Below are positions 1,788 through 52,700 of a DNA stretch of 55,580 bases, piece after piece (the stretch's first letter is position 1; every line of letters starts with the position of its first letter). The stretch spans positions 1 through 55,580 of the forward strand of contig MQRK01254915.1 of assembly GCA_001938485.1 (NCBI GenBank), written 5' to 3'. Origin of the DNA: Girardia tigrina. Its lineage: Eukaryota. The position numbers were made by a program, and so were the translations under genes. Below the pieces are notes generated by a model. It was not told the DNA's origin. It made no database searches and saw only the letters and a program-made list of their open reading frames with translations.

Positions 1788-4700
1788 CTTAAATAAAACA
1801 ATTTTAATATAATATCTTGTGAAAGTATGTTATGAAGTAAATGTATATCAACGATGGACGATACGTTTACTTCAAAACGTATTCAATAAAAAAATAAAAC
1901 TCAAAGGCCGAAATTTATTTTACTCAATTTTATTAAGAATTAATGTTCAATAAGAGGTGAAGGTCTACACACCGTGAGCATGAATTAATTAAACATGCTA
2001 TGTGACTGAAGGGAAAGTAACTGATCAATATAGATTCCATGATATGTATATCATTATGTATGTAAAATATTATTAGTTCATACCAGAAAGAATGAGACTT
2101 TTGAAATGTCAATATCATTTTTAACGAGCAATGTAAAAAAAACAACCCTGTGTAATACATTCATTCATAATCACCATTCTTCTTTTTAACATTAGAGAGG
2201 CATTGTATCAGTTTTCCAATCTCAGATGACCATCGATCAGCAGAAATATTTTTCAGTTCTGATGTAATGAATTGATGTAACTCATCTGCAGATTGAAAAT
2301 TTGTTTTGTGTCGCTGATCTTCCAAGTAAGGGTGAATAAAGCGATCCAAGATGTTATAATCAGAGGAATATGGCGATTGACGGAGTAAGGTAGCATTCTT
2401 TTTTGCGAGAAACAAGGACGTCACTTTGGAAACATGAGGCCTCGCGTTGTCTTGCACGAAAATCATGTTTCTCCAGTTTAGTGGAAACACATGTCGACTA
2501 AACTTCTTCTCCATATTAACAAGAAAAGTGACATAACGCTCGCTATTCTTGATTTCTCTCTCCTGCAGCAGTTCGCAATGATATTTTCCAGTGAAGGAAA
2601 ATGATTTTTGATGATGAAATGACAGACATGATTTTTCTGTCAAACTGGCTACGCTTCACGACATGAATGGGTTCACTGTGATCATCATCAGAAGAGACCC
2701 AGCAACAGTTGCTTCTTTTCTTGCCAACAGTTCTCATGTAAAACCACTTCTCATCAACCATCACAATATATTCATGTTGGTGTTTGCTTTTCAAAATTTT
2801 TAACCATTCCTTTGCAGCATTGACACGATTAACCTTTAGATCATTTGACAATGTATGAAGAACCAACTTACAGGCAACAGACCGAAGCCCAAATGGCCAC
2901 TCACAATATGCTGAATGGTTCCATGGCTGAGGGATATCTCATCTACAATTTAATCAATGGTCACTGCACCATTGGCGTTAATAATTCCAGAGACCAACAG
3001 AATGTTTTCAGGGGTTATTTTTGTTAATTTTCTCCCGAGGTTTTTCCAAGCAAAAGAAGTCTTGTCATTGTCAAATTCAGTTATCCACCGATACACTGTA
3101 GATTCTCCAACACTGTCAGCACCATGAACAGAGATATTTTCCTGATAAATTTCACTTCCCGTTATGCCGAGTGAATAACGGGAGAAGGTATAGAAATGAA
3201 GATTTTTTTCGATTTTTCGCCATCATACAGACAAATAAATCAACCAATATTCAAACAAGTATTCAATAAATATTTTCTGTCAATATTTTTTTAACTATTA
3301 CATATTTTTACTCTTTATATGTTACTATATACTGCACAAGTAATTTCCGCCTTTACAGATCACAAACATAGAAATATAACATCATTCTCACTCTTTCTGG
3401 TACGAACCAATAATTTGACTTTAGAGCCCTAAAGTTCTATTTTTTAACAACTTCGAAAGCCGCATTTATTTTGAAACAGCACCTTGTGACATTCAAGGTA
3501 GCCGTTGCTCACGTCTGATAACACAATTATTTATCTGTCTTAGCCGTTTTTGAGAATTTTAGCAGATAAAAGAAGAAACGCTTGAGAGTAAAAGAGTGGA
3601 CAACTAATGCTATAAGTATGGATTTTTCCAATTTTTTGTTTGCGTTTTTTATATTAAAATCAAAAATATCTAACTTTTTTAATGAACAAATATAATTAAA
3701 TCAGGCGCGTAGGCAGGATAATAATAATTTTTAAAAATAATTTTGATCCTAATTACCTCTTAGTTTTTAAACTGAAAATAAGTTTTACAGAGCAAAGAAA
3801 TTTTTCTTCCTCAAAATATTAAACATGCTGCAGATAATGATATCCTCCTATCTATGGATATCATTAATGAGCAATGACCAGGAGATAAAAGTTGCACTGA
3901 AGAAGTCTTTTTTGGCGAAGTGACAATGTAGAGGCATTATTGTATTAATCAAAATATTTTTCGATAGACAACCCATTGCTTGAATATTTGGAACTTTCAT
4001 TTATATCCTAAGATTCACAATATGCTGAAGTTATTTGCAAATTTACTAGTAACAACAGACACAGCTGAACGATCTCTTTCTACATTAAGCAGAATCAAGA
4101 CTTACTTACGAAATATTTCATCAGATCATATACTGAATGGCTTAGCTATAATGAACATTCATCAGGAATAATATGCTTCTTTAAAGACTGAAGAAGTTTA
4201 AGACACTGGCGCAGAACCCAAGAAGATTTATGCTTCTATAATTATTTTATAAATATATTTATTTCTAATAAAAGTTATTAAATGTGGAATTTCGATGATA
4301 TTATAAATTTTATTATTTTAATATTAGTTAATTTAAATTTTTTTAACTTTGAAAATCGAAATTCAAATACACAGAAAAATACTGCGTAATATTTATCCTC
4401 CCGAAATATTTTTCTGCGTACTAAATTAAATATTAAAGTTTATGATAATATCTATTTACTATGGAAAAAAAAGATACATTTAAAGCAATAAAACCCCATC
4501 TTTATTTTAGGAAAGCAAATGTTACATCATTTATCGCATTTAATAACCATTAGAATAATTATAATGATAATTGTAGCTGTCGCGACTGTTTTTCATGAAA
4601 GAATGTTATATTTCATTCATATTATTTGGATATAATATTTTTTCGCAGATAGCCATCATATGATTGAACGACTTAAAGCTTTTCGCGACGCTTATTGCTA

Positions 4701-7700: not shown

Positions 7701-10700
7701 TTTAAGTTTGGTCTTTCTTTTCTTTTGTGCAACCAAAATGACTTAACTTGGATCAAATAGATATTTGTGACAAAAATAGGTTCTGGACTTCAACCGGAAA
7801 AGTTTTAGGATTGTGATTACAATGATTACAGTGTGATTGTCGACAGCTGGTGTGACCCACCACAAGTTTTTGGAATAATGTCAAATTAACAAAACAAAAT
7901 CCTGATGTTAGGAAATCGACAAACCAGCCAGAGCTAATATACAGACGTAGTCCTACTACCCAAATTAATATGTATTCGGATACGTAAAATAATTCTTATT
8001 AAAAATTTAAATTATAAATAATATGTACTTATTTGTATTATAGATGAATTAATTTGATATTTCACGATAATCTAAATACAATTCTGAAATAATTTGAAGA
8101 AATCAAATAAAAAAGTTAACTAATAAAAATTTTATTCGCATTTAAAAATTTGTTCTCAAATTCTAAAGAATTCGGACATCTCTTTTTCAATTCAAAAGAA
8201 TTTGGACACTTAATAAAAATTATAATATAAATTTAGGCAATGAATTATTTTAAATTCAATATGGATTACTAGTAAAAACACAAGTAGTTGTTAATGTTTA
8301 AATATTTCAGTCGATTAAATTTTCCTTATTTTTAAAATATGGTTCGTGGAAAAAAGAATCATACGGAAATGCGTGAGAAAATATTTGCCATGTATATTAA
8401 AGGAAAATCAGTAAGGGAAATTTCAAAAATTTTACAGATAAGTAAATCGACGGTATTCGATAACATTAAAAAAGCTAAATACCGCCAGAATAACTCATCG
8501 CCAAAGAAATCTGGACGACCAAAGTTAACTTCCGCTACTGATAACCGGTGTTTGAAGAGGTTAATTCCTCAATATCGTCGTGCTACTGTTCAAGAAATCA
8601 ACGAGAAATGGAGTATGCAAACAGGCATTTCTTCTTCTCCGTCCACTTGTCTACGTCGAATACATAAATTAAATTATTCATTCTACAAGGTAAGATTTTC
8701 TTAATGAAATATAAGCATTGCGTAACACTTCTTTAAGGCTAAAAACAAACCCTCTCTGTCACCTATTCAAAAGAAAAAGAGAATTGAATGGGCTCTTAAT
8801 CATAGTAAATGGAGCCAAAATGATTGGAATATAGTTATTTTTTGAGACGAATCTCGTTTTGAATTGTCTATGGGCGACATGGAAAATCGGTCTATAGTAG
8901 TATAATACAGCATGACAACGACTGCATACATGCTTCGAGAATCTGCGTTTGAAATTTTAAGGACTTAAGGTTGAAGTTCTGCACTATACATCTTACTTTC
9001 TAGACCTTGATCCATCTAACTATCTTTGATAACTTTCTCGTCCGTAAAACCTTCACAATCAGGAACAATCCAAAACGGTTTTCATAAACTTCATCAAATT
9101 CCAAGTACCAAATTCCAAGGAAAAGTCAACTTACTTCTATTAAATCCATAGCTTAAAGTTTATCAATTAAAACTTTAGATCATTTCTAGAAACCCAATAT
9201 ATTATGTTAATATTTCTATACCAACAAAAGTATCAGCAAATTTAATATGGTCAATGAAAATAGTCGACAATGTTTTTATTCAATAAAAATATCTCTTCAG
9301 TTTTAAATATTTCATCTATTTTTTTTATTTCTTCGAATATCTTTCGTTGTTTGGAGATTTTTTAAAAAATCATAACTAAAAAACTTTTGATACAAATGTA
9401 TTTTATAAAATAAAAAATAATTTGTAAAATATTTTACCTTCGCAAAACTTTTGACCTTTGATTAAACTGAATCCAACTGGACACGATTTAGAATCATCAT
9501 CTTCTGCTATCAAACTAGACACAATAAAGTCTATTTTTGTACCCGAAGTATTTGTTATAACTGATAAATCTTGGACCAACAATTGTTGGACCATTAAGGG
9601 TTGCCTTTTACCTTTTTGAATAGTGATATTTGTCGACCACTGATAAGGTTCTATCTCTTTATTGATTCTAAATAATCTTGCCGAGTCAGAATTTAACCTT
9701 CCTACAATTAAATATTGAAAGATCTTGTTTGACATACCTCAAAACTAACCTAAGGTAGGATTCATTTGTACGATAATCTCTTTGTAATTTTCAAGTGTGA
9801 TTTTATCCGGATCAGAATTTAATACTGCTTTTGGACATTGAGCTTTTATTTGCGTTAATAGTTTTAATTTATTTTCTTTTGTGTGAAACTTATGATCCAT
9901 TTCCACTTTATTTCCTTCTGCCAATTCCATGGTCGTTTGCATTTCAAAATTTCCCCTACTGACGGTTTTTCCATTTCCCGCTGATCCAACCTAAATTAAT
10001 TCCATTTAATTAAAAAAATATTTTTGACGTTTTTATGAAATTAGTTGCATACTCTTACGTTTTATTTATCTCTAAAGGAAAACTTAAATAAACTTGTAAT
10101 TGATTAAGTCCGATCGGTTACTTAAGTTACTTATCACAAAAACGGATCTTTTAAAGGACATATTTGAATAAAACATTTTATGACTTTCATTATGTATTTT
10201 AGGAAAATTATTTTAAGATATATTATTAATTTTAACAGTTTGTTATTCTTGTTCTTCAACCTGAGTTTTTGTGATAAAGTAAACATTTAAATAAAAGATT
10301 CTATTATAATTTTACTTATCAGTATTACGGCAATAACGCTAATAAAATTACATACACCTTATTGGATCATGCGCAAAGTGATTTGTCCAATCAAATTAAA
10401 GTATCTTGAATTAAGGCATAAATGACGTCATGAGCATCTGAATATATGGGCAATAACAACTGCAGAACTGAGGAAGGCAAAAACACTTTGTGCAACACGT
10501 ATACGAATAAAACATTTCAAAATGTAGAATGACACCTTTTAATTGAATAACTAGATTACAATTTGTTATGATTTTCTTCATTCAACATTTCAATATTTTT
10601 GTGTAAATTTCATCAAATTGGAAACGTTTCAAAACGTGTATCAATGGGAATGTTTTGGATTGTCAGAAGAATTGCCGATTCCCATGGAAGTGATAAATTC

Positions 10701-13700
10701 TACCAAAATATACTTAAAACGATAATCTTTATGGGGTAAGTATCGGTATTTTCCGCTGATATCCGTCAAACAACTTCTTTACGCTATGCACAAGATCTAT
10801 TAGAGAATCTGTGTTCATCAATTCAGTCACTATATACGAAATGATAAGTACTAGATTTACATAAAAACGAAGACATTTAACAACCGTTAGTTTTAATTAA
10901 ATTAGACGTGAATTTACATTTACTCTAACAACCAAAATCAATACGAACCCCAAAATATCTTACAGCAAACAAAAGATCTCAATCTCCGCTGAAAGCCGAA
11001 TAAAAAAACTCTTACAAATCTCTTATTTCACGTTCCAATGTCTTCATTTCGTCTTTGAAGCGAATTCCGATTAATTTAAACTTTGATTATATCGACCGAT
11101 GAGAAAATGCGACTAAATCGTCGGCAACAAAAATACAAATGACAATTAAATCTGATGAGCGTTATTTGACTTTTTATACTATCTAAATGTCATTTTTTGA
11201 ATATTTAAATAATCATATCTGTTTCTTCTTTTTATTTCCAAAGCAAGCGCTTTTCTTTTCCAATTATTAGTAATTTTATACACATTTCTAGCAATTTTTT
11301 TTATAAAAGTGGTAATCAAAACATCTCAAACTTGAAAAAAAATACTTTTCTTATCTCTAATACATCTTGTTACTAGACGAAAATATTAAGCATATTAAAA
11401 ATGAACTGATATGATGATGTAGCACTTAAAACATTTTAAATTTTTTCAACTCTCCTGCTTTTTATTTCCTGAAATAATAATCGAAATAAAAGAAAAGAAC
11501 CCAGAAATAAAGTTGTCTCTCGTCAAATGATCATTTTTGTATATAAGTTTCTCATAAAAACTGCCACCATTAAAATGGTAATTAAATTAGTTTTGAAAAA
11601 GATTCATGTAATAAAAGACTATATTAACAATGATATACTCGCGTTTATATATCAAAGCAATGTTTATGTAATCATTATGTCATTTAAATCATGAAAATAC
11701 TTTCAATAAAGTTGAAGAGGATGGTGTTTGGACATTGATTTTAGGATCAATAGATTTGATCAACAATGCTTCACACATCACCCTCTCCCAGTAATTATCA
11801 AATTTTGAACACAAAATCTTAAAATTGCTTACATCAACTTTACTATTCAAACAGTTCTTCTTATGTTGAGCAATATTGCTATCACTTTCCCTGCGATTAT
11901 GTTCCTGAATCCGTTGACAGAGATGACGACAAGTCTCTCTGATGTATGTGGCGTCACACCCATTACATTTATATTGATAAACTAAATTGGAACATAACCC
12001 AGTTGGAGTGATGGATTTACTACTAAACAAACTTCCTATCTTACATGATCTAGATACAATTTTTAAATTTAATAAATTATTTTCATCATGTTTCAAAATA
12101 GAGTTTTTGAATTTCCTGAAACCCTCAGAGTAGGGAACAGTCAAAACAAAACCAATTTTATCATAATTATTATTTATCTGATTTTTGTTTTTGTCGCTAT
12201 TTATGGTATTTGATTTTTCATTTTCATTTTCCGATTTAATTAATTTATCGACAGTTTCACGAGTTAATTTTTCAACTATCGATTTGGAATATCCATTTTT
12301 ATGAAGTAAATTCATTAACTTGTCAATACTTTCATTACATTTAGCGTACATAGACGAAAGTGTCCAAGATCTATAGATCAAACCTTTTATCATATTTCTT
12401 TTATATTTAGGTTCACAAAAACTGTTAGGGGTTGTATATAACCCTGTATCAGTTTTCTTTCTATAGATCCCAGTTTCAAAATGGTTGTTTTTTGCTCTTT
12501 CTATCAAAAGATCTAAGAATGGTAAAACATTATTGTTTTCATATTCTACCGTGAATTTTATATTTGAATGTAGGGAATTCATATAATTTAAGAAACATTC
12601 AACTTGTTCTTTATTATCAAACAATAGAAAAATATCATCCACATAACGCTTATAAATTTTAGGTTTAATACCATCATATAGACTTATTTTTTCTTCAATC
12701 TTGGAAAGAAATATCGAAGCTAAAGTTGAAGGTAATGGAGAACCCATAGCTACCCCATCAACCTGTCGATACCAATCATTATTAAATAAAAATCGTAAAT
12801 TCGATGTTGCAAAATATAACGATTCCCGAAAAGCAATCTCATCAACTAAATGATGTTCATACATTATTTCTTCATCATTTGCAACATAAGTCTATAGTTT
12901 CATGTAAAGGAACATTTGTAAACAAATTTACAACGTCAAACGATACCATGAAATTATTATTTACGTCAAGATTAGAAATTACCTCAACAAACTCAAAACT
13001 NNNNNNNNAAGTGAATTCAGAAGAAAGTAAAGGCTTTAGTTTTGAATCTAGATATTTAGCGATTCTGTACTGGGAAGTGTTAATCATTGAAATTACTGGT
13101 CTCATAGGAATTCCGTCTTTATGAACTTTTGGCAATATTGCTCAACATAAGAAGAACTGTTTGAATAGTAAAGTAAGTAATTTTAAGATTTTGTGTTCAA
13201 AATTTGATAATTACTGGGAGAGGGTGATGTGTGAAGCATTGTTGATCAAATCCTTTGATCCTAAAATCAATGTCCATACACCGTCCTCTTCAACTTTATT
13301 GAAAATATTTTCATGATTTAAATGACATAATGATTACATAAACATTGCTTTGATATATAAACGCGAGTATATCATTGTTAATTCAGTCTGATGATGACGG
13401 TTGATCCGTCGAAATTAATCACAATATATTCTGACGAAAATTTTTTGACTTTTAAAAATTCATTATCATCATTTTTTAAATATTTATAAAAAGACTATGT
13501 TTTTGATTGTTATTTTGTATACACGTAAAAAAAGAGTTAAGTGTAATTGAATAAATTGATATTTTTGAATTTATTTTAATCCGAATTCAACAGAATCATT
13601 TCCTATTTTTAAGAATAACTCAGAAATTATCTAAATTCTATCAATTCATCATTAAAAGTAAGTGCTTACCTCATATGCTTCTAGCCAAAGCAAAGGAGTC

Positions 13701-16700: not shown

Positions 16701-19700
16701 ATCGGAAACCTTAAAAATCGACTGAAATTTTCCATAGACAAATTTCTATGGTATTTTTTTGCAGATCGGTATACCATTTTAATTGAGGTTTGATAATCCA
16801 TTGGACTGTATATAAATGTGATTATCTGGATGCTTATTCACATATTTCATTTTCTAGTGGACGATTCACCATCGAATGTTTAATCACCGGATGATTTATC
16901 ATGCCATTTTTTACAGGTTGAAGAAAAATTAAGTACTACTTAAAGAGCAGATCAGGCGTGCAATTGAAAGTTACGGGAGATCAAGTCGTTTGACGTTTTT
17001 AAATGCATTCTCTCATTTGTCATACTGTTAATAAATAAAGTAATTTTTATGTTGTTGTAATGTAAATATATGTTATATATATTTTATCTTAATTCATTAG
17101 TCATAATTTTAATTCAGTCTTGGTCAGGCAGGGAAAATAGGTGTCCTAAAAATAGTTTGTTGTGAAAGTTATCGAATTTAGTACGAATTATCGTTAAAAC
17201 AATTGTTTTAAGCAGGTGTGATAAATCATCAGGTGATGAAAAGTCTTAGAATCATAAATTTCTATTTAAATTCAAATTTCTTATTTATTTTATTTATATT
17301 TTTTAATCCTCTTTTGAATTAAAATTTAAAACGCGAAATTTAAATAACATTTGAATATTGGAACTATTTATCAATCATCAAACATAGTTTGGAGGGGTTT
17401 AACTTTTGATTTTGGTGTCCAAACTACATCTACATTTTCTACTCTACATCGCTTGAATAAAAAATTTATTAATTTACCTTTATCTGAACATTTCGGGATC
17501 CAGACACATTTTATTGTTTCCACTGATTTTTCAGAACACAAACCATTTGGTGACAAACATCTTCGACTTCTAGTTTTAACAGATGAACTATCAACTGTTT
17601 CATAACATGTTTGCGAACATTCACTCCACTCAGACCATGGTGACCATATACTTTTATTTTTATTATCGCATTTGTTTTCGTTACATTTTTGAACATCCTT
17701 AGATGGACCACGACACCATTGTCCTCCAAAAGAAGGTGGTGGTTCCGTACATGTTCTGTCACGTTCTTGAAGTCCTGTTCCACACTTTGTAGAACACTCA
17801 GTCCATGATCCCCAATTAGACCACTGTCCATATACTATCATGTGTACTCAATAATTACTTAATTATAAATAATAAATTGTACCTGGGCATGGAGATTCAT
17901 TACATTTTGTTTTCATAATATTTTGACCATTACAATCTACACCTCCGAATTTTGGTGTAGGTTTATCACAGCGTCTGGTCTTTTGTTTCTCACCAGAACC
18001 ACAACTTTTAGAACAATATGACCATTTCGACCAAGCACTCCAATTTCCATCAATTGGACATTCGCCTTTTGAACAAGACCTGATCTGTACAATTTTAGTA
18101 TAAACTGAGTCTAATTTATTTAGCAAAAACTAATTTTAATCCTTAAACTTTTTATAACTTGTAGATAACAGACTTTAATACTAATTTAATATATAAATGA
18201 TACACAAAAATAAGAAATTTTAAATATTTTGATTAAAAATAAATACTAGAATTTGATATGACCTTTAAAGTTTTCTATTATTTACATTATTAAGCCTTAC
18301 TTCTAAATCTTTTCCTCTACAAAATTTTCCATTATTCTTCGGTTCAGGGTTGTTACAGTGTCGCTCTCTACGTTGGCTTCCACCCGAACCACATGTGACT
18401 GAACAAACTGACCATGAGTTCCATTCGGACCATGCCCCATCAATTGGACAAGGCAAATTTCTTTCACATAGAATGTCTTCCATTGCATCTCCAATACATG
18501 GCTATCTTATGAATTGAAAATGATAGCAAAATAAATATTTACCTTTCCTAAATTACTAGGCGGAGGATTATCGCATCTTCTAGTTCTCTGGCGGATACCG
18601 GAACCACACGTTGTTGAACAAGGACTCCAGTCTTGCCAAGAACTCCATTTGCCATCCGTAGGACAAAATCGTAATAAGCATTCACGTTTTTCTTCACTTT
18701 CTCCGATACATGCCATTCCTTCATTAGATGGCGGAGGATTATTGCAAAGTCGTTTTCTAATTCATTTATATTCAAATTGATTCCAAAAATATAATACCGT
18801 GCCATAAATCCTTTTCCGCAACTAACACTACATTTAGACCATTCTTCCCATTTTGACCATCCTCCAGCAATTTGAACTGTTACATATGCTGGATGAGAGT
18901 AAACTTCTCCTCTATCACTTGAAGCCACACAAAAATATATTCCTTCATGTTCCTTTTGAACTCCAATTATTCTTTAAAATTAAAATAAAATTTCTTGAAA
19001 TATTTCAATTAAATATACAAATATTTGTTAAAACAATAATGGGGAAAACTATAAGTGTTAAAATTAATCTTTGTGATATAACCGAAGCTGTAAAAGAAAT
19101 TATATTCTTAAAAGAAGGTATTCTTCAAGAATTACAAAGAATTATCTTGGCTGGAAAACAACTGTAGGATGGAAGACATTTGGTCGATTACGAAATTCAA
19201 AAAAAATCAACATTATATTTGGTTATGAGGCTGAAAGGGGGTTCCAAAAATGAGCAAGACATCCAACAATACGAACATAAACTAAGTCAAAGAAGAGTAA
19301 TCAAAGCGTAATTAACCAGATCAAGAAGATTATTATTCCAGAACGCTGTTTTCGAAGACGAATGGATAAAGAGAGTGGAAAAATATACCGAAAAACACGA
19401 TCTATTATTGAAAGAGTATGAAAATATGTTGAACCTTGGTTACAAATTAAAAAGAACGGAAATTGGAAGATTAGAAGATGAATTAGATAAAATCGAAGCT
19501 GAGGATCGAGAAATAAATGAAGTAACAAAAGAACGTTACAATATTTTAGAAGATCAAAAATATATTCAGCCAACAAATAAAGGTTATGACACCAAAGAAT
19601 TGGAATCGTTCGAGAAATTACAGATTCCTACGTTTGATGGGACGATTTCAAAATATGAAAATTGGAATGCCATTTTTATGGCGTTCATTGATACCGTAAA

Positions 19701-22700
19701 TGCACCCAAAACAATAAAATTACTTCATTTCAAAAAATATTTAATTGGAGAACCTTCACGAATAACTGAACGGTATGGATTCGATGATAATACTTATAAA
19801 GAAGCATTAAAAGCTTTAGAAAAACGATACGGAGTGGAAAAGAGCTATGTATCTTTGAAAGATGAAGTAAACCGATTTCGAAATGTTGATCGTTGAAAGT
19901 TTAAAGAAGTAGAAAAGTTTACGAATCTTCTACAATCATTAGTGAGTAGATTAAAGCGTTTGGAAAAAATTGCAGATTTGCATCCGGGATTTTTATATCA
20001 ATGTCTAATACTTAAATTACCGGAGATAATGGTTGCAGGATTTGAAAGATAGAGAGAAGACCACCATAAAGATCAAGGAGTTGAAATTTTATGTGAATGG
20101 GTAACAAGAGAAACAGAGATTCGTCAAACAGCTTATGAGACATTATACGGAGTTGATTCAAAAGAACGGATCAAGGACTACAAATTAACAAATATGACAC
20201 AATCTGTTGGAATGACAAGGAAACCAGGTGCGAAATTTTTTAATTCAGAGAAAAAGCAGAAGTGTCCTTGGTTTGAAAAAGGAGAATGTAGTTTCGGGGA
20301 TAATTGTCGAATGATACCTATAAAAGAAAATTCAGCAAAAATTCAACAAACAAATCAAACTGTAGAGAAGTTATGAAGGACTTCTGTAAATTTGGAGAAA
20401 AATGCAAATTTAGCCACTCCAAAATAAGATCAGATTACAAGATATATGATAAAACTGAAAGAAATCAAGAGAGCAAACATAACGATAAAGATAGTGAACT
20501 AAGACGAGAGACACAAAATTCAACTTCTTTGACAGTTGCAATGAGTAAAAATGTGATACTGGATCAGGTGGAAATCGCAATGCGAACATTACCCGTAACA
20601 TTAAAATATGGTGAAAATAAAGTGGATGTCATAGCTTTGCTTGACGATGGTAGTAATTGCAGATATATCTCAGAAGACGTGGCAGAATTATTGAAAATAG
20701 TAGGGAATAAAGAAAACATGACAATTCAAATGTTGAGTGAGACAGAAAGAGTTATGTCTACTAATCAGGTTAAAATTGAGATTTCTGGGGAAAATAATCA
20801 GGAGAGTTGGCCGTTTACAGCCTTAGCCTCAGTTGTTAAAGGAATTAATGTAATAAATTGGAATAGGGAGTCAAAAAAATGGAGACATTTGGAGGAAGTT
20901 CCATTTATTCAAATTAAAGAAGACGAATCAGTTAGCTTAGATCATCCTAAATTTCACAAATCTATCATTGAGATTAGTGGAGGTAAAAATAATCCAATTG
21001 CACGGTTAACGGCGTTGGGTTGGACAGTTGTTGAAAAAATGGGTAAAGGAGAAAGAAAAAAACTTGAATGCTAATTTTTCTTGCGCTGAAATTTTGACAG
21101 ATGCAGATTTAGATAAAATCGTCAGGTGTCAAGAAAAAAATGAATTTTAAATCTGCTTATATATGCAAGCAGTGATTATGTCAACAATGGTTTATTATGT
21201 CATCTAAACACGCCCAATAGGGTTTTGAAAGACCCATTTGAACATTAATCTTAGAATCTAAAGATCTGATATAAAGTGCTTCACAGGCCACCCTCTCCAA
21301 ATAATTCTTAAAACGAGAAACGTTTTAATTTTTCGTTTAAATTGACCAAATCCCTCTGAATATGGGATGCTGAAAATGTATTTTAAATTTGTTGATTCTT
21401 CTTTAACATTTTTTATCTTTAGATCCTAAGATTAATGTTCAAATGGGTCTTTCAAAAACCCTATTGAGTGTGTTTAGATGACATAACAATCCATTTATTA
21501 TATAATCACTGCTTGTCTATATAAGCAGATTTAAAACTGATATTTTTCTTGAGACCTGATGATGACGGTTATACTGTCGAAATTAATTGTCATAAAAAAA
21601 TAATGTTTAGTTAACAAATAGCGTGATTTTGTGTTTAAAAATAATTTGCCATCATTTTTTAATTTTCTGAATAATAATAATAACAATTTATACTGGTAAA
21701 AGTAGTGAAAATGGTTTCTTCCTATGCGTCCACTATTGAGCTCTTGATAATTATGTTCACGTAGAATATGCATCACATTCATATAAAGAGAAGAATCTTT
21801 TGTCAATTCTTGAAGTTATTCCAGAAACATAATCATGAAGGTGGCGACAAAATTGTTGAATATTTTGAGGATTATATGAGGACATGAAATCAAAAATTCT
21901 ATTTTTTTATTAAATTATTTATGATGTATCATTAAACTATTGTATCTAAAATCTATAAATCTTTAAAATGTTAATCGAAAATGATGAATAAATATTTAAG
22001 ATTAAAACAAATAACTGTACTGGATATGGTTTGTTAAGCGGTCCATAATGTTCTTATATTATTTTGCCTTGGGGGCCACATAATCCTTTTATAAAGAGAA
22101 TTAATCATATTTTATTATAGACAGAATATTTATTTTTATAAAATTTACTAGGTTTTCTATTATTCTTTCAGTTGAGAAGGTCTTTATTGCATGTTGTTTT
22201 AGAGTAATGACTCTAGCAAATCTACTGTTCCAATGATTATATTATTACAACTTGATGAAATACTGACTAGTAATAATTAATTTTTAATCAATATTAAAAT
22301 TTACTAAAAATTGCCAAATAAAATTTTAAAAAGTTTTATCATTTAAACTAACATTATTTTACAGAAATAATTTGTTATACTCATAAAAACTGTACAGTGT
22401 AAAGCCATGGGTACACTTATTCGAGTCGTGATTCGATTGTAAAGTTTATGTTATTTTTTAAAATTATGTTTGATAATATTTTTTATTATTTATATATTTA
22501 AATATCATAATATTATTACCTAAGTGAACCATTTTTTATAATAGATTTGACAAAGTCAAAGTCAACTTTCTTTTTATCTTTATACCAACTTATTGCTGGA
22601 ACTGGATATCCTTCAGCTGCACAGTGTAAAACAAGAACATCCCCCAGATTTACCGATGTATTGCTTGGCATGAGTGTTAAAACTGGAGAACCTAAATTAA

Positions 22701-25700
22701 ATTTAATAAATGTTTTTTAAGAATTTTTAATTCCAATTATCATATCTGGGAATACAGAAAAAAATTAATTTCTACATTATTTTTTTTAAAAAGAATATTT
22801 TTGATCTTCAAGAAGATTTTGCTGTCTATTTGGTTGGATAGGAAGGGTAAAGTGTATTAGGAACTGCTTCCAAGGAACTAAACCATTAATGTAAAGGTTT
22901 ACTTTTATTTACTGTTGATAAATGGATTAATTGAATGCATCGGTTAAGGAAAAGCGACCAGAATCGGTCAATCGTAAAGATGTCATTTTTCACTAGGATA
23001 ATGCTAGGCCTCACACAACTTTGGTCCCTCGGATAAAAATGATGGATATTGGTTGAAAATTGATGTTGCACTCATCATATAGTTCTGATTCCGCACCAAT
23101 GGATTACAACTTTTTTCGATCCTTGGACAACTCCATTCATGGTAAAAACTTTCAATGACAATGGCGTTATAAAATCTCACTTAACTCAGTTTTAGACGGA
23201 AAAAGATCATACTTTCTACGAGCGTGGAATTTTCAAGTTGTCAGAGAGACGTCAAAAGGTCATCAAACAAAATGGAAATTAAATCATATATTAAAGTTAA
23301 TTTCAAGTAAAAAAAACTCTTTTTTCAGTGAATAAATCGGCAATTAGGTAGTTGGCAATATAAGTTATAAAAAATTATTATATAAAAATTAAATAATCAA
23401 ATAATAAGATATTATAAAATCAATTTTATCTACAGTACTGGTCAAAAGTCTTAGAACAAAGTACATAAATATCAAATTTATTGTTGCAAACATTTGTACA
23501 AGCAAAACATTGATTAAAATATGGCAGTAATTGATACAAAACATTAAAGCACTATTGTAAAAAGCTGTCTCTGCATGATTAATATTTAGTTGACCTACAG
23601 TGGTTCTTCAAAACATTAAGGCCTTAGTAGCCTCTAAAAACCAGACCGATTTTATTGCATTTTGTAAGTCTTTCAAATAAGTGAGTCTTCTAATTGACAC
23701 TTTTTTCTTTAATATAATCCAAAGATTCTCATTAGGATTAAGGTCTGGGCTGTTTCCAGGCTATTGCAAGACATCAATTCTATTTTCCCTAAACCCCTGT
23801 TTCACAATCTTTGCCTGGTTGCATGGGACACCTTCCTGCTTCAATTTTCCACAATAATGAATTTGCATAATTAGCTTCAGTTTATTTTTCAAAACCTCTT
23901 TGTAAGTAGTGGCATTCGCGGTTGTTCCTGGAGGTAAAACCACAAAGGACGTCGGCCAAAAGCAGAAAAGCACCCAATACCATGCAGGAAGATGGATGCT
24001 TAACGGTAGGGTTTGTATACCATGTATTAATTTTGACCAACTTGTTTCCTTATAAATGGTCTATAACTCTGAAAAACTAGATTCATCTGAAAATAATACT
24101 TTTCGTCATTCAGCTTGAGTCCAGTGGCCATATTTCTTACAAAATGCAATGCGATCGGTTATGTTCTTTTTACTCAAAAGGGTTTTTTGGTTACTTTATA
24201 AGTACGACATTTAAATGTAACCTGCAATCATCGTCTTATACTTCTGCAGTTTAACCGAATTTCAGGTAACTCTGCTTTAATATCTGAAGCGGAGAGAAAC
24301 GGATTCACTACACACATTCTTCAAATCATACTATCATACTTCTTTTTTACAACAATATGAAAATTAAAATATTTATTAACAGTATGACAAATGAGAAATT
24401 CCATTTAAAAACTTCAAACGACTTGAACTCGCGCAACTTTCAACTGCACACTTGATCTGCTCTTTAAGTAGTACATATTTTTTCTTCGGGTTTCTTTGAC
24501 TTCCTGCTGCGGCCTATAAAAAACTTCCAGTCTATATAGCCCTTTCTTTCATTATTCCCTGAAGAAAAGTCCACATTGATGGATGATTGCATAAAAGCAA
24601 TGATTGAAGGCTTTAAATTATAAAATTTTATTTAACCCTTAAATGCATGATTTTTTATTTTTTCATGAAATATTTGATGACAGCTAAAGAATTTTGACGT
24701 TTATATCAATATTGGCGGGAGTTTTGACATGTTTTGTTATAATCGTCATAGACAAAAATGTACAAAGATAATTTATTTACAAAGGACAGCAATTATTTAC
24801 ACAAACTGGATGCATGGCACTTTCAAACGTTTGTTGTATCATTTTTGATACAAGATGCATTCAAGGGTTAAAGTATGATGAATTATTTAATAAAAAATCA
24901 TTAAAAAATTTTATTTAAAGTGTGATGAATTGTCCGGTGATGGAACATCCGATGGTGAATCGTCCTCTAGAAAAATAAAAATGTAATGAAGCGTCCTGTG
25001 ATGAATCATCCGGTGATGAATATTAACATATGTTAATATTCATAACGTTATACTGATTAAATTAAAAATACATGAAATTATTAACAGTTTTTAAATTGTA
25101 AATAATATTTTTAAAGTTCGTACTTTTAACAAGGAAATTGACTTGGCCTTGGGCTTCCCCTGCTGTATTGGACGCAATGCATTGGTATGTACCCGTATCT
25201 CGGGACTGAAAAAGGTAAATATTTAACCGTATTTCTGAAAGCAATTATACTTCAGCATGATCTATAATTAAATTTGAGTTGCTTATAAAAAGCCGAGAAC
25301 TGTTTTGAACAACGATTCCATTCTTTAACCATATTATTGAATCAACTTTTCCTTCCACTTTACACATAAGGATGGATCGTTTTAGATTTTCTTTTGGTTG
25401 ATCCGACTGATAAACAGTGACTTTTGGTTTTGCTGGAAAAGAAAAGAATCGATTATACCATGAAAAATATTAAAATTTCAACAATAAGAAAATAATTTTG
25501 AATTTTTAAAGACATGGACAAAAATAAAAGTAAAATAAAAATATTTTTTAATTTTTATTTCAGAATTTTAATGTTTCTAATTTTTTGCTAACAATATATA
25601 TTATATAAATAAATTAAAATCTCAATTTTTACAAATTTACAGTTATCATTATTAATTAAATAAAAAGTATAAAACTCAAATTATTATAAAAGTCTAAAAG

Positions 25701-49700: not shown

Positions 49701-52700
49701 ATAGACGCATTTCTCCTCCCTTTAGTATCCATCGCTTTTTATCAGGATCAGTAGGCATAATTTTAGGGGGGTCTACAAAATGTTTGTTTGAATAAATACA
49801 TGTTTCGGCATGTGTTATTAAAATTTATTATTTTCGATTTTTCAAGAAATTATTCAGAAAAAAATGATTTAAATATTAATTTTCGTTCCAAAAAATCATT
49901 GCCATTGTTTAACTAAAAATCATTTCTCTAATTCAGACTTATACAAACTTCCTTATGTTAGAATTTTAGGGGGCTCACGAATATTAGAATTTTAGTATTT
50001 AAAATCTCTCAAAGGAATTTTAAAAATATTTAAAATATGTCTTCATAAATTAAAACATTGAAAAATTGTAGGGTTGAAAATATTTTTAATTAAAGTATTA
50101 CTCCCTCTGTCCGAAAATAAGAGTCCCATTTCTCTTATGAATTTCCCAATGAAATGGGACTCTTATTTTCGGACAGAGGGAGTAAATTATAATTTTATTA
50201 TTGAAAAATCATTGTAAAAAATGAAAATTTTAAATTAGCAAAAATAATAAATTTTAGTTTAAGATTTTTTTAAAGTAAAAATTTATAATAATAAGTTAGA
50301 AAAGCTAAGTAATGATTTTTTTTTTAAAAAATAAAAGAAATTATAAGTTTAACAATTGAAATGAAAACTTTAATAATTGCAAAATTTCCCATATGAATGT
50401 TTTTAAAATGAATTAAAAGAATTTTAACAAAAAAGAAAGTATAAAATTTTTAAAAAATTATGTTGTAAAATTAATTTTTAAAATTCTCACATTAAAGAAA
50501 TAATAAATTAATTATCCACAATTTAATAAAGTTAGTAAATTTAGGAAAAATGGAAAATTGCCCCCTTTAAAAGATGATGAATATTTGTCTTCGTTATTAT
50601 CGAATTTAATTGAAAATAAAAATATTGATAAAAATTTAGCTAATAGTTTAAAAGCAGTTGGTTCTCAACCAGCTAAACTGTATGGACTTCCAAAAGTTCA
50701 TAAAGATGGCATTCATTTGAATCCCGTATTATCTATGGTAAATACATCTCAATATGAAGTAGCGAAATATCTTGATGGTAAATTAAAGCCACTTCTGAAA
50801 AAGGGTTTTAATTGTTTAGATAGTTTTGAATTTGTTGACTTTATTTCAAATTATAAGATTAGTAACAAAAATGAAATTATGGTTTCTTTTGATGTGGTTA
50901 GTCTTTTCACCAATGTTCCTCTGAGGGAAACGATTGATTTATGTTGCAATCTTTGGAAAGATAATGTTGGTGAACACCATCTTATCGATGAAGTGGCATT
51001 TCGTGAATTGTTATGTTTTGCCACTTCTAATATTCATTTTCTTTTTAATAATGAGTGGTATAAACAGGTTGATGGTGTAGCAATGGGTTCGCCTTTAGCT
51101 CCAACACTGGCTTCAANNNNNNNNNNNNNNNNNNNNNNNNNNNNNNNNNNNNNNNNNNNNNNNNNNNNNNNNNNNNNNNNNNNNNNNNNNNNNNNNNNNT
51201 TTCTTATTTTCGATAATCAAACTGACATAGATCCATTTTTAGGATACTTAAATTCTTTGCATCAAAATATTAAGTTTACAACAGAAACAGAGAATAATGG
51301 TAAATTATCTTTCCTAGATTTACTGTTTGAAAGGAAAAGAGATGTTTATGAGACTGAGATTCACAGAAAGAAAACTGATACTGGGCTATAATGCAACGCC
51401 AAACAGTTTTTGTGAATCTCGATACAAATATAATATGATTAGAGGATTAATTTTTCGATCTTGGTCATTATCATCAACTTATACAAAAAGTTGTGATAGC
51501 ATTAACCAANNNNNNNNNNNNNNNNNNNNNNNNNNNNNNNNNNNNNNNNNNNNNNNNNNNNNNNNNNNNNNNNNNNNNNNNNNNNNNNNNNNNNNNNNNN
51601 NNNNNNNNNNNNNNNNNNNNNNNNNNNNNNNNNNNNNNNNNNNNNNNNNNNNNNNNNNNNNNNNNNNNNNNNNNNNNNNNNNNNNNNNNNNNNNNNNNNN
51701 NNNNNNNNNNNNNNNNNNNNNNNNNNNNNNNNNNNNNNNNNNNNNNNNNNNNNNNNNNNNNNNNNNNNNNNNNNNNNNNNNNNNNNNNNNNNNNNNNNNN
51801 NNNNNNNNNNNNNNNNNNNNNNNNNNNNNNNNNNNNNNNNNNNNNNNNNNNNNNNNNNNNNNNNNNNNNNNNNNNNNNNNNNNNNNNNNNNNNNNNNNNN
51901 NNNNNNNNNNNNNNNNNNNNNNNNNNNNNNNNNNNNNNNNNNNNNNNNNNNNNNNNNNNNNNNNNNNNNNNNNNNNNNNNNNNNNNNNNNNNNNNNNNNT
52001 GAGACCTGACGATGACGGTTATACCGTCGAAATTAATTGTCATAAAAAATAAATTTAACAAATGGCGTGTTTTTGTTTATAAACATAATTTGCCATTATT
52101 TTTTAATTTTTTAAATTAATTATTCGTATTTATATTTCATTATCTTTATATATAAATGGTTTATGAAAAAAAATTAATTTTTAATTTATTTTTAAATGTG
52201 TAAATATAAAATTAATTGATCTTATTCTTATAAAACAATTCAATTACTCTACTATTTATTTTTGTAAAATATTAGAGGTTAACAAAGATTTAAAGGCTGA
52301 CCTTTAAGAAAACCTTCAAACTGAACAGTTCAAAAGCATACAAACCAATTACAGGTTTGAGATAGAATTACCAGCCTCTTTGAGAGACGCACTTAAAATC
52401 TCCAGCTAAAGGATGACAAGACTGATTTCTAAATTTATTTTGTCTTCTGAACTAAATGTACAAATTCTGCTAGGGATATGCAAAATCTTACTACAAGAGA
52501 TTTTTTGTATGTCATATATAAATAATCTAAGAATAAAAAACTTGGGTTGGTAACAAATAGAGCTCGGCACTTATTTTATATGTTAATCCTACAAATAGTT
52601 TAAGGTTCAACACCCTGTACACTGAAGTAGCCTTAGGTATCTTTGAGAATAATAAACAATAACATATGAACTGAAATATGTAATTTATAATTCTTATATA

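Follow-up and report, generated by a model that had tools for sequence, protein, structure and literature searches.

A Bel/Pao retrotransposon family of Girardia tigrina with ubiquitin upstream of Gag and host mRNA pieces within its long terminal repeats

We analysed a 55,580-bp stretch of the Girardia tigrina genome (assembly GCA_001938485.1, contig MQRK01254915.1, positions 1–55,580; hereafter the window) that carries a remnant of a Bel/Pao retrotransposon in which a ubiquitin unit is joined in frame to Gag. The window copy is a dead fragment, and its interest rests in the family that it indicates, a new and unusually designed form of Bel/Pao element. We consider it probable that in this family one reading frame leads from a host mRNA piece captured in the long terminal repeat (LTR), via the primer site, to ubiquitin, Gag and Pol, and that host deubiquitinases would cut after the terminal GG of ubiquitin, thereby discarding the leader and giving Gag-Pol a fixed N-terminus. 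Loci of the same genome are designated by L numbers and related proteins by P numbers.

The window copy

The remnant and its parts are as follows.

18998..21117, + strand: decayed remnant of the internal region of the element (2120 bp; sister copies align from 18998)
19015..19242, + strand: ubiquitin unit, ending LVMRLKGG; premature stop at 19165
19243..20200, + strand: Bel/Pao Gag with helical N-terminal part and DUF1759 core (about 19633–19884); stops at 19309, 19894 and 20050
20251..20423, + strand: two CCCH zinc fingers (Pfam zf-CCCH) in different frames with a frameshift between them; stop at 20374
20478..21032, + strand: aspartic protease region (LLDDGS); weak Asp_protease_2 match (E 0.07), and match to residues 547–740 of P0004 (E 1e-25)

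The ubiquitin unit comprises 76 codons that align without gaps, and our recount reproduced the 45/76 identities to human ubiquitin reported in the initial annotation; identity to the genome's own polyubiquitin unit is likewise 45/76. Retention of K6, K11, K27, K33, K48, K63, I44 and V70 and of the LVMRLKGG end was also borne out; R72, L73, G75 and G76 are kept as well, and K29, L8, H68 and R74 are altered. The ubiquitin frame does continue into a Bel/Pao Gag, as first proposed. The DUF1759 match of this decayed copy (E 7.5e-5) is just below the Pfam cut-off, which sister copies exceed (L056, L058, L061, L062, L064), and window positions 19012–20172 match residues 69–458 of the relative P0004. 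In locus L054 the same two CCCH fingers share one frame. Protease (PR) is the only Pol domain retained: searches of the window with both primer-site motifs and with reverse transcriptase (RT), RNase H (RH) and integrase (IN) queries found no LTR, primer site, RT, RH or IN of this element, and in locus L008 the sequence continues towards RT where the remnant stops at 21117. The stop codons of the copy are those listed above. Two of them, at ubiquitin residue E51 (19165) and at 19309, had been described as single-base lesions and stand as such, but ubiquitin codon 1, ATA, does not belong with these lesions, because it is common to L003, L004, L008, L018, L019 and L020.

The ubiquitin–Gag junction is family-wide

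A DNA search of the genome gave 24 matches to the window element with 66–100% identity. The ubiquitin–Gag junction recurs on many unlinked contigs (66–91% DNA identity), with subfamilies down to 31% protein identity. A protein query with stops written as X, for which 134 of 3457 candidates were scored, gave at least 136 matches, the majority of them spanning ubiquitin and Gag; the ubiquitin–Gag matches of the genome number at least 130 and fall into about 13 deep subfamilies. Eighty larger regions were fetched from the protein matches, and ubiquitin lies upstream of Gag in 79 of them; as ubiquitin was part of the query, this set is ubiquitin-selected. An unbiased census therefore used the Gag core alone (150 matches), from which 69 loci were examined, made up of the 29 top matches below the window itself plus 40 of lower rank picked as new. 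Ubiquitin was present in 48, nine were untestable owing to a gap or contig end, and twelve had no ubiquitin match. Inspection of these twelve by eye revealed a very diverged ubiquitin in L295, a retained ubiquitin C-terminal end in L290, L272 and L274, and loss of the Gag start as well in the other eight; with the misses judged in this way, none of the 69 loci has a whole Gag N-terminus without ubiquitin. L295 and L297 represent another subfamily. Its ubiquitin resembles the others by only about 30%, but the terminal GG is kept in L295.

That a ubiquitin pseudogene and Gag are neighbours by chance, or in a misjoined contig, was the case foreseen for a junction unique to this locus. We found no point in its favour, and the recurrence on dozens of unlinked contigs and in distant subfamilies refutes it, as does the presence of the junction in proteins from independent assemblies (P0004, P0005, P0017, P0053, P0063, P0067, P0113 and P0125), leaving it practically no probability.

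Architecture of the fuller copies

Fuller copies share the order LTR, primer site, linker, ubiquitin, Gag, CCCH, PR, RT, RH, IN, DUF5641, polypurine tract, LTR. Among 79 loci, RT was found in 17, RH in 15, IN in 13 and DUF5641 in 13, always in this order. Both LTRs are present in L089 and L128; they begin with TG and end with CA, are 97–99% alike over their main blocks, are flanked by matching 5-bp target duplications, and a G-rich polypurine tract precedes the 3' LTR. The frame of the fuller copies starts within the 5' LTR and passes through the primer site and linker before it reaches ubiquitin. Ubiquitin is thus internal, with the frame open far upstream of it in many copies, and the initial view of an N-terminal leader with a mutated ATG is not supported: the unit is part of a longer frame, the start of which lies in the captured host mRNA piece of the LTR.

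A fixed HSP90 middle-domain piece, shrinking by deletion, occupies the linker of several subfamilies (L054, L068, L086, L124) and of the outside relative P0053. The linker of subfamily A (L069, L076, L089) also has tandem repeats of 20–30 bases just after the primer site, which are read through in frame and vary in copy number.

The primer site was identified in 35/79 copies, 284–975 bases upstream of ubiquitin. Host tRNA-like fragments whose anticodon loop carries CAT are complementary to its commoner motif, and neither ARAGORN nor Rfam called a tRNA gene at these fragments; we take this primer to be initiator Met, and the second primer site is presumably Leu-like. Loci L317–L322 are 3' halves of an initiator-like tRNA that are likewise not called as tRNA genes; some are repeated within one contig, and one has a terminal CCA.

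Compared with the ICTV profile of Bel/Pao elements, the frame here crosses the LTR end and the primer site, ubiquitin precedes Gag, the middle of the LTR is host mRNA, several subfamilies have CCCH fingers, and the primers, by our assumed labels, resemble initiator Met and Leu tRNAs. In the profile, the 5' LTR is followed by non-coding sequence, and the primers are tRNA-Arg or tRNA-Gly (PMC8742986). By the assumed labels the primers of this family depart from the profile; we treat primer identity as descriptive and not as defining. Judged from sequence, the family belongs to Bel/Pao (Belpaoviridae) by its DUF1759 Gag, its PR-RT-RH-IN order with Peptidase_A17 and DUF5641, and its LTR features. 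Two sources (PMC8742986; PMC3118150) give the same traits for known Bel/Pao elements, namely LTRs of 0.5–1.9 kb, an 18-nt primer site, a polypurine tract, a single Gag-Pol frame with PR-RT-RH-IN, and the domains DUF1759, Peptidase_A17 and DUF5641. The Flow superfamily, to which the present family could belong, is known from Schmidtea, Hydra and Nematostella.

Host mRNA pieces inside the LTR

Close copies have a common LTR head of 130–200 bases and a common tip of 25–120 bases around unrelated middles. For 35 copies, the 1150 bases upstream of the primer site were scanned on both strands, which gave 117 open frames of at least 62 residues. Pfam matches to host proteins were obtained in 15/35 copies, all in sense orientation and 14 in the frame of the primer site; L094, one base off near the tip, is the exception. 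They comprise PSMC2, PRMT, SH3 with actin-like, Sec22-like (n = 3), 14-3-3 (n = 2), phosphatase with Nckap1, HR1, LRR (n = 2), tubulin, metallophosphoesterase and Usp, and copies without a found primer site add USP9X-like, SMC and KIF21A-like pieces. Two transposon matches, to DDE_3 (antisense) and GIY-YIG, were not counted, since at over 800 bases upstream they probably lie outside the LTR. The captured pieces are truncated, internally deleted and mosaic, and their parent genes are unrelated. Variable pieces lie upstream of the primer site, within the LTR; internal host pieces are limited to the fixed HSP90 and ubiquitin ones.

Introns are lost and the piece ends mid-exon in 2/2 traced parents. 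The PSMC2 piece is without the four introns of gene L206 and the 14-3-3 piece without the three introns of gene L223; both retain the 5' untranslated region (UTR) and ATG, and the end of the 14-3-3 piece resembles the LTR tip over a short match. As read from these comparisons, the LTR middle derives from spliced host mRNAs.

The frame of the primer site was evaluated by a stop test over 240 bases beyond the tip (gap-free copies, n = 30; independent lineages, n = 22). It has the fewest stops in 23/30 copies and in 18/22 independent lineages (p 4e-6). The stretch from primer site to ubiquitin is stop-free in L056, L058, L059, L063, L064, L086, L092 and L123, and in L089 an open run leads from the primer site into the HSP90 linker piece. 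Although first noticed in the same data, the primer-site frame is independently fixed by this downstream continuity to ubiquitin or the HSP90 piece.

LTRs bearing 14-3-3 amount to at least 1012 candidates, 150 of which were scored, and the PSMC2 domain has 94 matches in the genome. Twenty-four 14-3-3 LTR loci were examined, four of them without a scorable end; among the 20 scored, 15 have perfect 5-bp duplications, three have one mismatch, one is a 5' LTR and one is unclear. 14-3-3-bearing LTRs therefore occur as solo LTRs at new sites. Neither ubiquitin nor Pol was found in the first 20 large regions around 14-3-3 and PSMC2 LTR matches, the 14-3-3 ones being mostly solo LTRs. Contig C169071 was considered as a two-LTR element and rejected, as it is an exact 1747-bp duplication without Pol.

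Capture could also have come about by read-through or splicing of host transcripts into elements within host genes. Since an open frame protects RNA from nonsense-mediated decay, the frame bias would then reflect escape from decay and not use of the host ATG, and sense, intron-less 5'-end pieces are likewise predicted. However, the two traced pieces both stop within an exon instead of at a splice donor, duplicates of the pieces are found in 3' LTRs and in solo LTRs at new sites, and decay escape by an open frame still implies translation from the captured start into ubiquitin. We regard this route as very improbable.

Two further observations concern host-derived sequences. Upstream of the PSMC2 piece, L203:1-1700 (G000:C208051) resembles the 3' part of another host mRNA with a stop and AATAAA; it is possibly a second capture, and we assume the sequence to be MND1-like. 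Besides the intron-bearing PSMC2 gene L206, the genome has many intron-less proteasome ATPase open reading frames (ORFs) of about 380–420 residues (L207:4651-5907 and L217; about 16 loci), which are possible whole retrogenes.

Conservation, selection and replacement of ubiquitin

Residues were tabulated for the 75/79 copies whose C-terminal part is in frame (four frameshifted copies were dropped), representing 12 subfamilies. The canonical residue is the commonest one at R72, G75 and G76 in 12/12 subfamilies and at L71 and L73 in 11/12. K11 and K27 are also kept in 12/12, K48 is commonest in 8/11, K63 in eight, H68 in six, R74 in 5/12 (elsewhere C, Q, K or N) and Met1 in only 2/12. Mean ubiquitin identity to a near-canonical copy ranges from 40% to 87% by subfamily. 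The unit has the sequence features expected of a cleavable ubiquitin fusion, as the domain ends with GG in 66/75 in-frame copies and no proline is present among the residues counted after it. The commonest residue at that position is S, M or G in all 12 subfamilies, which fits the earlier suggestion of a defined new N-terminus on Gag.

For analysis of selection, variants were counted by column, and those in at least two copies were assumed to date from the active life of the element. The ratio of nonsynonymous to synonymous shared variants (N/S) is 0.21 for Gag (seven subfamilies) and 0.82 for the LTR pieces (LTR pieces versus Gag, p 1e-5); taken separately, the 14-3-3 pieces have 0.54 and the PSMC2 pieces 1.06, no different from single variants. 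Ubiquitin has a shared N/S of 0.23, compared with 0.58 for single variants (p 0.008); subfamilies A and D were omitted here because their ubiquitin was swapped. Constraint extends over the whole ubiquitin fold and not the tail alone (N/S 0.08–0.44 by subfamily). The captured pieces hence change nearly neutrally, and ubiquitin and Gag are constrained. With the junction family-wide and its ubiquitin under purifying selection, two proposals of the initial annotation held up: that a Bel/Pao lineage captured ubiquitin, and that selection inside the element, and not decay of a host retrocopy, shaped it.

The constrained fold bears on the possibility that ubiquitin remains on part of Gag as a signal for budding via the endosomal sorting complex required for transport (ESCRT), for sorting or for turnover, the LTR captures being tolerated passengers. 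Gag-ubiquitin fusions can replace late domains, the fold is constrained as a whole, K11 and K27 are kept throughout, and R74 is often changed. On the other hand, deubiquitinases also need the ubiquitin fold, G75 and G76 do not vary among subfamilies, in contrast to L8, I44, H68, V70, K48 and K63, and the frame bias of the LTR pieces is left unexplained. We consider a retained signal unlikely. The original suggestions of ESCRT recruitment and of a decoy have little support, because K48, K63, H68, I44 and V70 vary and R72, G75 and G76 do not.

A further alternative is that the released leader-ubiquitin product is itself the point, with truncated host proteins or variant ubiquitin serving as decoys or being conjugated to host proteins. 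Several captured genes do come from ubiquitin or signalling machinery (PSMC2, USP9X-like, 14-3-3, HSP90), the 14-3-3 LTR is very numerous, and the fixed HSP90 linker piece has a shared N/S of 0.39 in subfamily A. The near-neutral ratios of the PSMC2 and 14-3-3 pieces, which are like those of single variants, count against such a function, as does the truncated, internally deleted and mosaic state of pieces from unrelated genes, and we rate it as distinctly unlikely.

Sister copies with Gag differing at a proportion of synonymous sites (pS) of 0.09–0.36 differ at ubiquitin by pS 0.70–0.81, and the newer ubiquitin form in subfamily A is near one host polyubiquitin unit (pS 0.30–0.36). This comparison omitted L306 (an element copy) and L310 (a duplicate of L307). 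Partial ubiquitin repeats upstream of the unit in L056, L058, L066 and L104 end with GS or GN, not GG, and indicate a polyubiquitin source. Ubiquitin would thus appear to be now and then replaced from host polyubiquitin mRNA. Host polyubiquitin itself is encoded by numerous short genes, each with two or three units (L307–L316), and their synonymous differences are saturated.

Relatives outside the genome

Ubiquitin precedes Gag in 8/161 related outside proteins (JGI, ENA and MetaClust sources), and outside protein P0028 starts with the apparent last residues of ubiquitin. The remaining outside relatives, many of them partial and including the EukProt protein P0006 (40%), have no ubiquitin match. 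A near-length search with the Gag of L058 recovered only P0125, the protein atlas contained only DUF1759 clusters (under 0.9), and matches in a metagenome scan were dominated by ordinary ubiquitin genes.

A branch with 100/100 support divides 23 ubiquitin-bearing rows from 20 ubiquitin-less relatives in a Gag-core tree, with 2 changes compared to 15.7 in shuffles, and the ubiquitin-bearing rows form a deep radiation in the Gag-core trees. When three distant outgroup rows were added, a single clade was rejected by the approximately unbiased test (p 0.012 under LG+G4, with long branches and with the group defined following the first tree). The second tree contained 46/94 rows of the first, hand-chosen for speed.

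Proposed mechanism

We propose that reverse transcriptase, while copying the 5' end of the RNA from the primer site, would switch to a co-packaged mRNA at a short match and later return to the element. A switch during 5'-end copying would place the piece, which would be in U5, in both LTRs. Ribosomes would then start at the captured ATG, so that only in-frame captures keep replicating. Ty1 Gag likewise starts within the LTR and crosses its primer site. Deubiquitinases cleave ubiquitin precursors after GG, and such a host enzyme would free Gag-Pol with a constant N-terminus. The GG site may make almost any leader tolerable, so that the LTR could keep sampling host 5' ends. We narrowly favour the broader view that the lineage has outsourced its translation start, with the LTR swapping in a host mRNA 5' UTR and start codon and the deubiquitinase-cut ubiquitin linker making any in-frame leader usable.

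Several observations weigh against this proposal. Host Pfam matches are lacking in 20/35 copies, and only two parent genes were traced. The frame test was missed by 4/22 lineages (some via visible small indels) and 7/30 copies, and depletion of stops in the LTR pieces is not significant (1 shared stop versus 16 single stops, p 0.08). Linkers contain in-frame Met codons, Met directly follows GG in six subfamilies, and other starts exist. R74 is kept in only 5/12 subfamilies, which could slow cleavage. L089 and L128 are flanked by both LTRs, but none of the copies fetched from the fragmented, AT-rich assembly (1.43 Gb) is unbroken and full-length.

Comparison with known systems

Among the titles and abstract openings returned by a full-text literature search, there was no ubiquitin-Gag Bel/Pao element and no LTR with in-frame host mRNA fronts; Repbase Reports, including a 2008 Schmidtea BEL note cited in PMC3118150 that may mention ubiquitin, lay outside its scope. 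The comparisons below draw on excerpts of the cited sources.

Cytopathic pestiviruses (bovine viral diarrhoea virus, BVDV) have inserts of host ubiquitin in their polyprotein, sometimes preceded by a host mRNA piece and without a Met of their own, and host hydrolases free the downstream protein (PMC8310069; PMC13517609); at pestivirus NS3, an S27a piece plus truncated ubiquitin acts as a processing signal (PMC8310069). The BVDV inserts are sporadic RNA-virus recombinants, whereas the arrangement described here is a fixed feature of a deep radiation and is linked to a leader that can be exchanged. Template switches at short matches are likewise the source of the partial, intron-less, sometimes multi-gene pieces of LTR-mediated retroposition, which pass through further copying rounds (Tan et al. 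2016, PMC5131818). Intron loss and partial mRNAs are seen here too, as is a short junction match for 14-3-3. In that system part of the internal ORF gives way to the retrocopy, and the resulting elements are non-autonomous; the pieces described here do not take the place of internal ORF sequence but lie within the LTR, are copied to both ends and to solo LTRs, and leave Gag-Pol whole.

The 2A peptides found close to the ORF2 N-terminus in non-LTR retrotransposons (PMC3708506) are similar: they act as a separator towards the N-terminal end of a single ORF, by which the enzymes downstream are released. They differ in acting by ribosome skipping, not proteolysis, and in belonging to non-LTR elements, and the excerpt describes no host-mRNA leader. 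Burro, a giant gypsy element of planarians (PMC6431247), is likewise an LTR element from flatworms, and its many host-like domains include a SUMO/Ubi2-like one. It is gypsy and not Bel/Pao, however, its ubiquitin-like motif lies after Gag among accessory domains, and no LTR capture is described in the excerpt.

Genomic setting of the window copy

Neighbouring features of the remnant are as follows.

18548..18973, − strand: host-gene open frame with Ig/TSP1 exon (TSP_1 match), left of the remnant-bearing intron
21118..21563, strand not assigned: inverted-repeat element adjoining the remnant end, with arms 21118–21226/21455–21563 and 21220–21265/21415–21460; MITE-like (miniature inverted-repeat transposable element), as its structure suggests
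25065..25244, − strand: nearest Ig exon across the same intron (I-set match, found by motif scan)

The remnant sits antisense in an intron of an Ig-TSP1-EGF host gene, which from its domain order we take to be hemicentin-like; Ig and EGF_CA exons occur elsewhere on that strand. For a proteasome gene of the host, the top named single-domain matches are from flatworms, with a narrow lead (216 versus 210–215 bits). Inverted repeat arms at 16828–17075/24332–24996, about 7–8 kb apart, enclose the TSP1 exons and the remnant. An RT-bearing fragment at 11616–13389 (RVT_1 at 11692–12891, minus strand), presumably Penelope-like by its C-terminal motif, lies between inverted arms of 217 bases that are 96% alike, and a related copy is found near 50507–52052. 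Tc1/mariner transposase remnants are present at 2161–3222 and 8336–8704 (DDE_3; HTH_Tnp_Tc3_2).

Significance

If the proposal is correct, each LTR lineage inherits the translational control of a host gene, and solo LTRs scatter hundreds of ATG-bearing host gene fronts across the genome. The family would then provide a natural and long-lived instance of the ubiquitin-fusion trick within an LTR retrotransposon, a design that would explain how repeated capture of host sequence is tolerated without harm to Gag. As capture is into the LTR itself, host gene fragments are multiplied as solo LTRs, which may have consequences for gene annotation and for cross-targeting by RNA interference and PIWI-interacting RNAs in such genomes. 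The family also offers a natural series of ubiquitin variants, about 30–97% identical to the host protein and probably still cleavable, as a readout of what deubiquitinases need.

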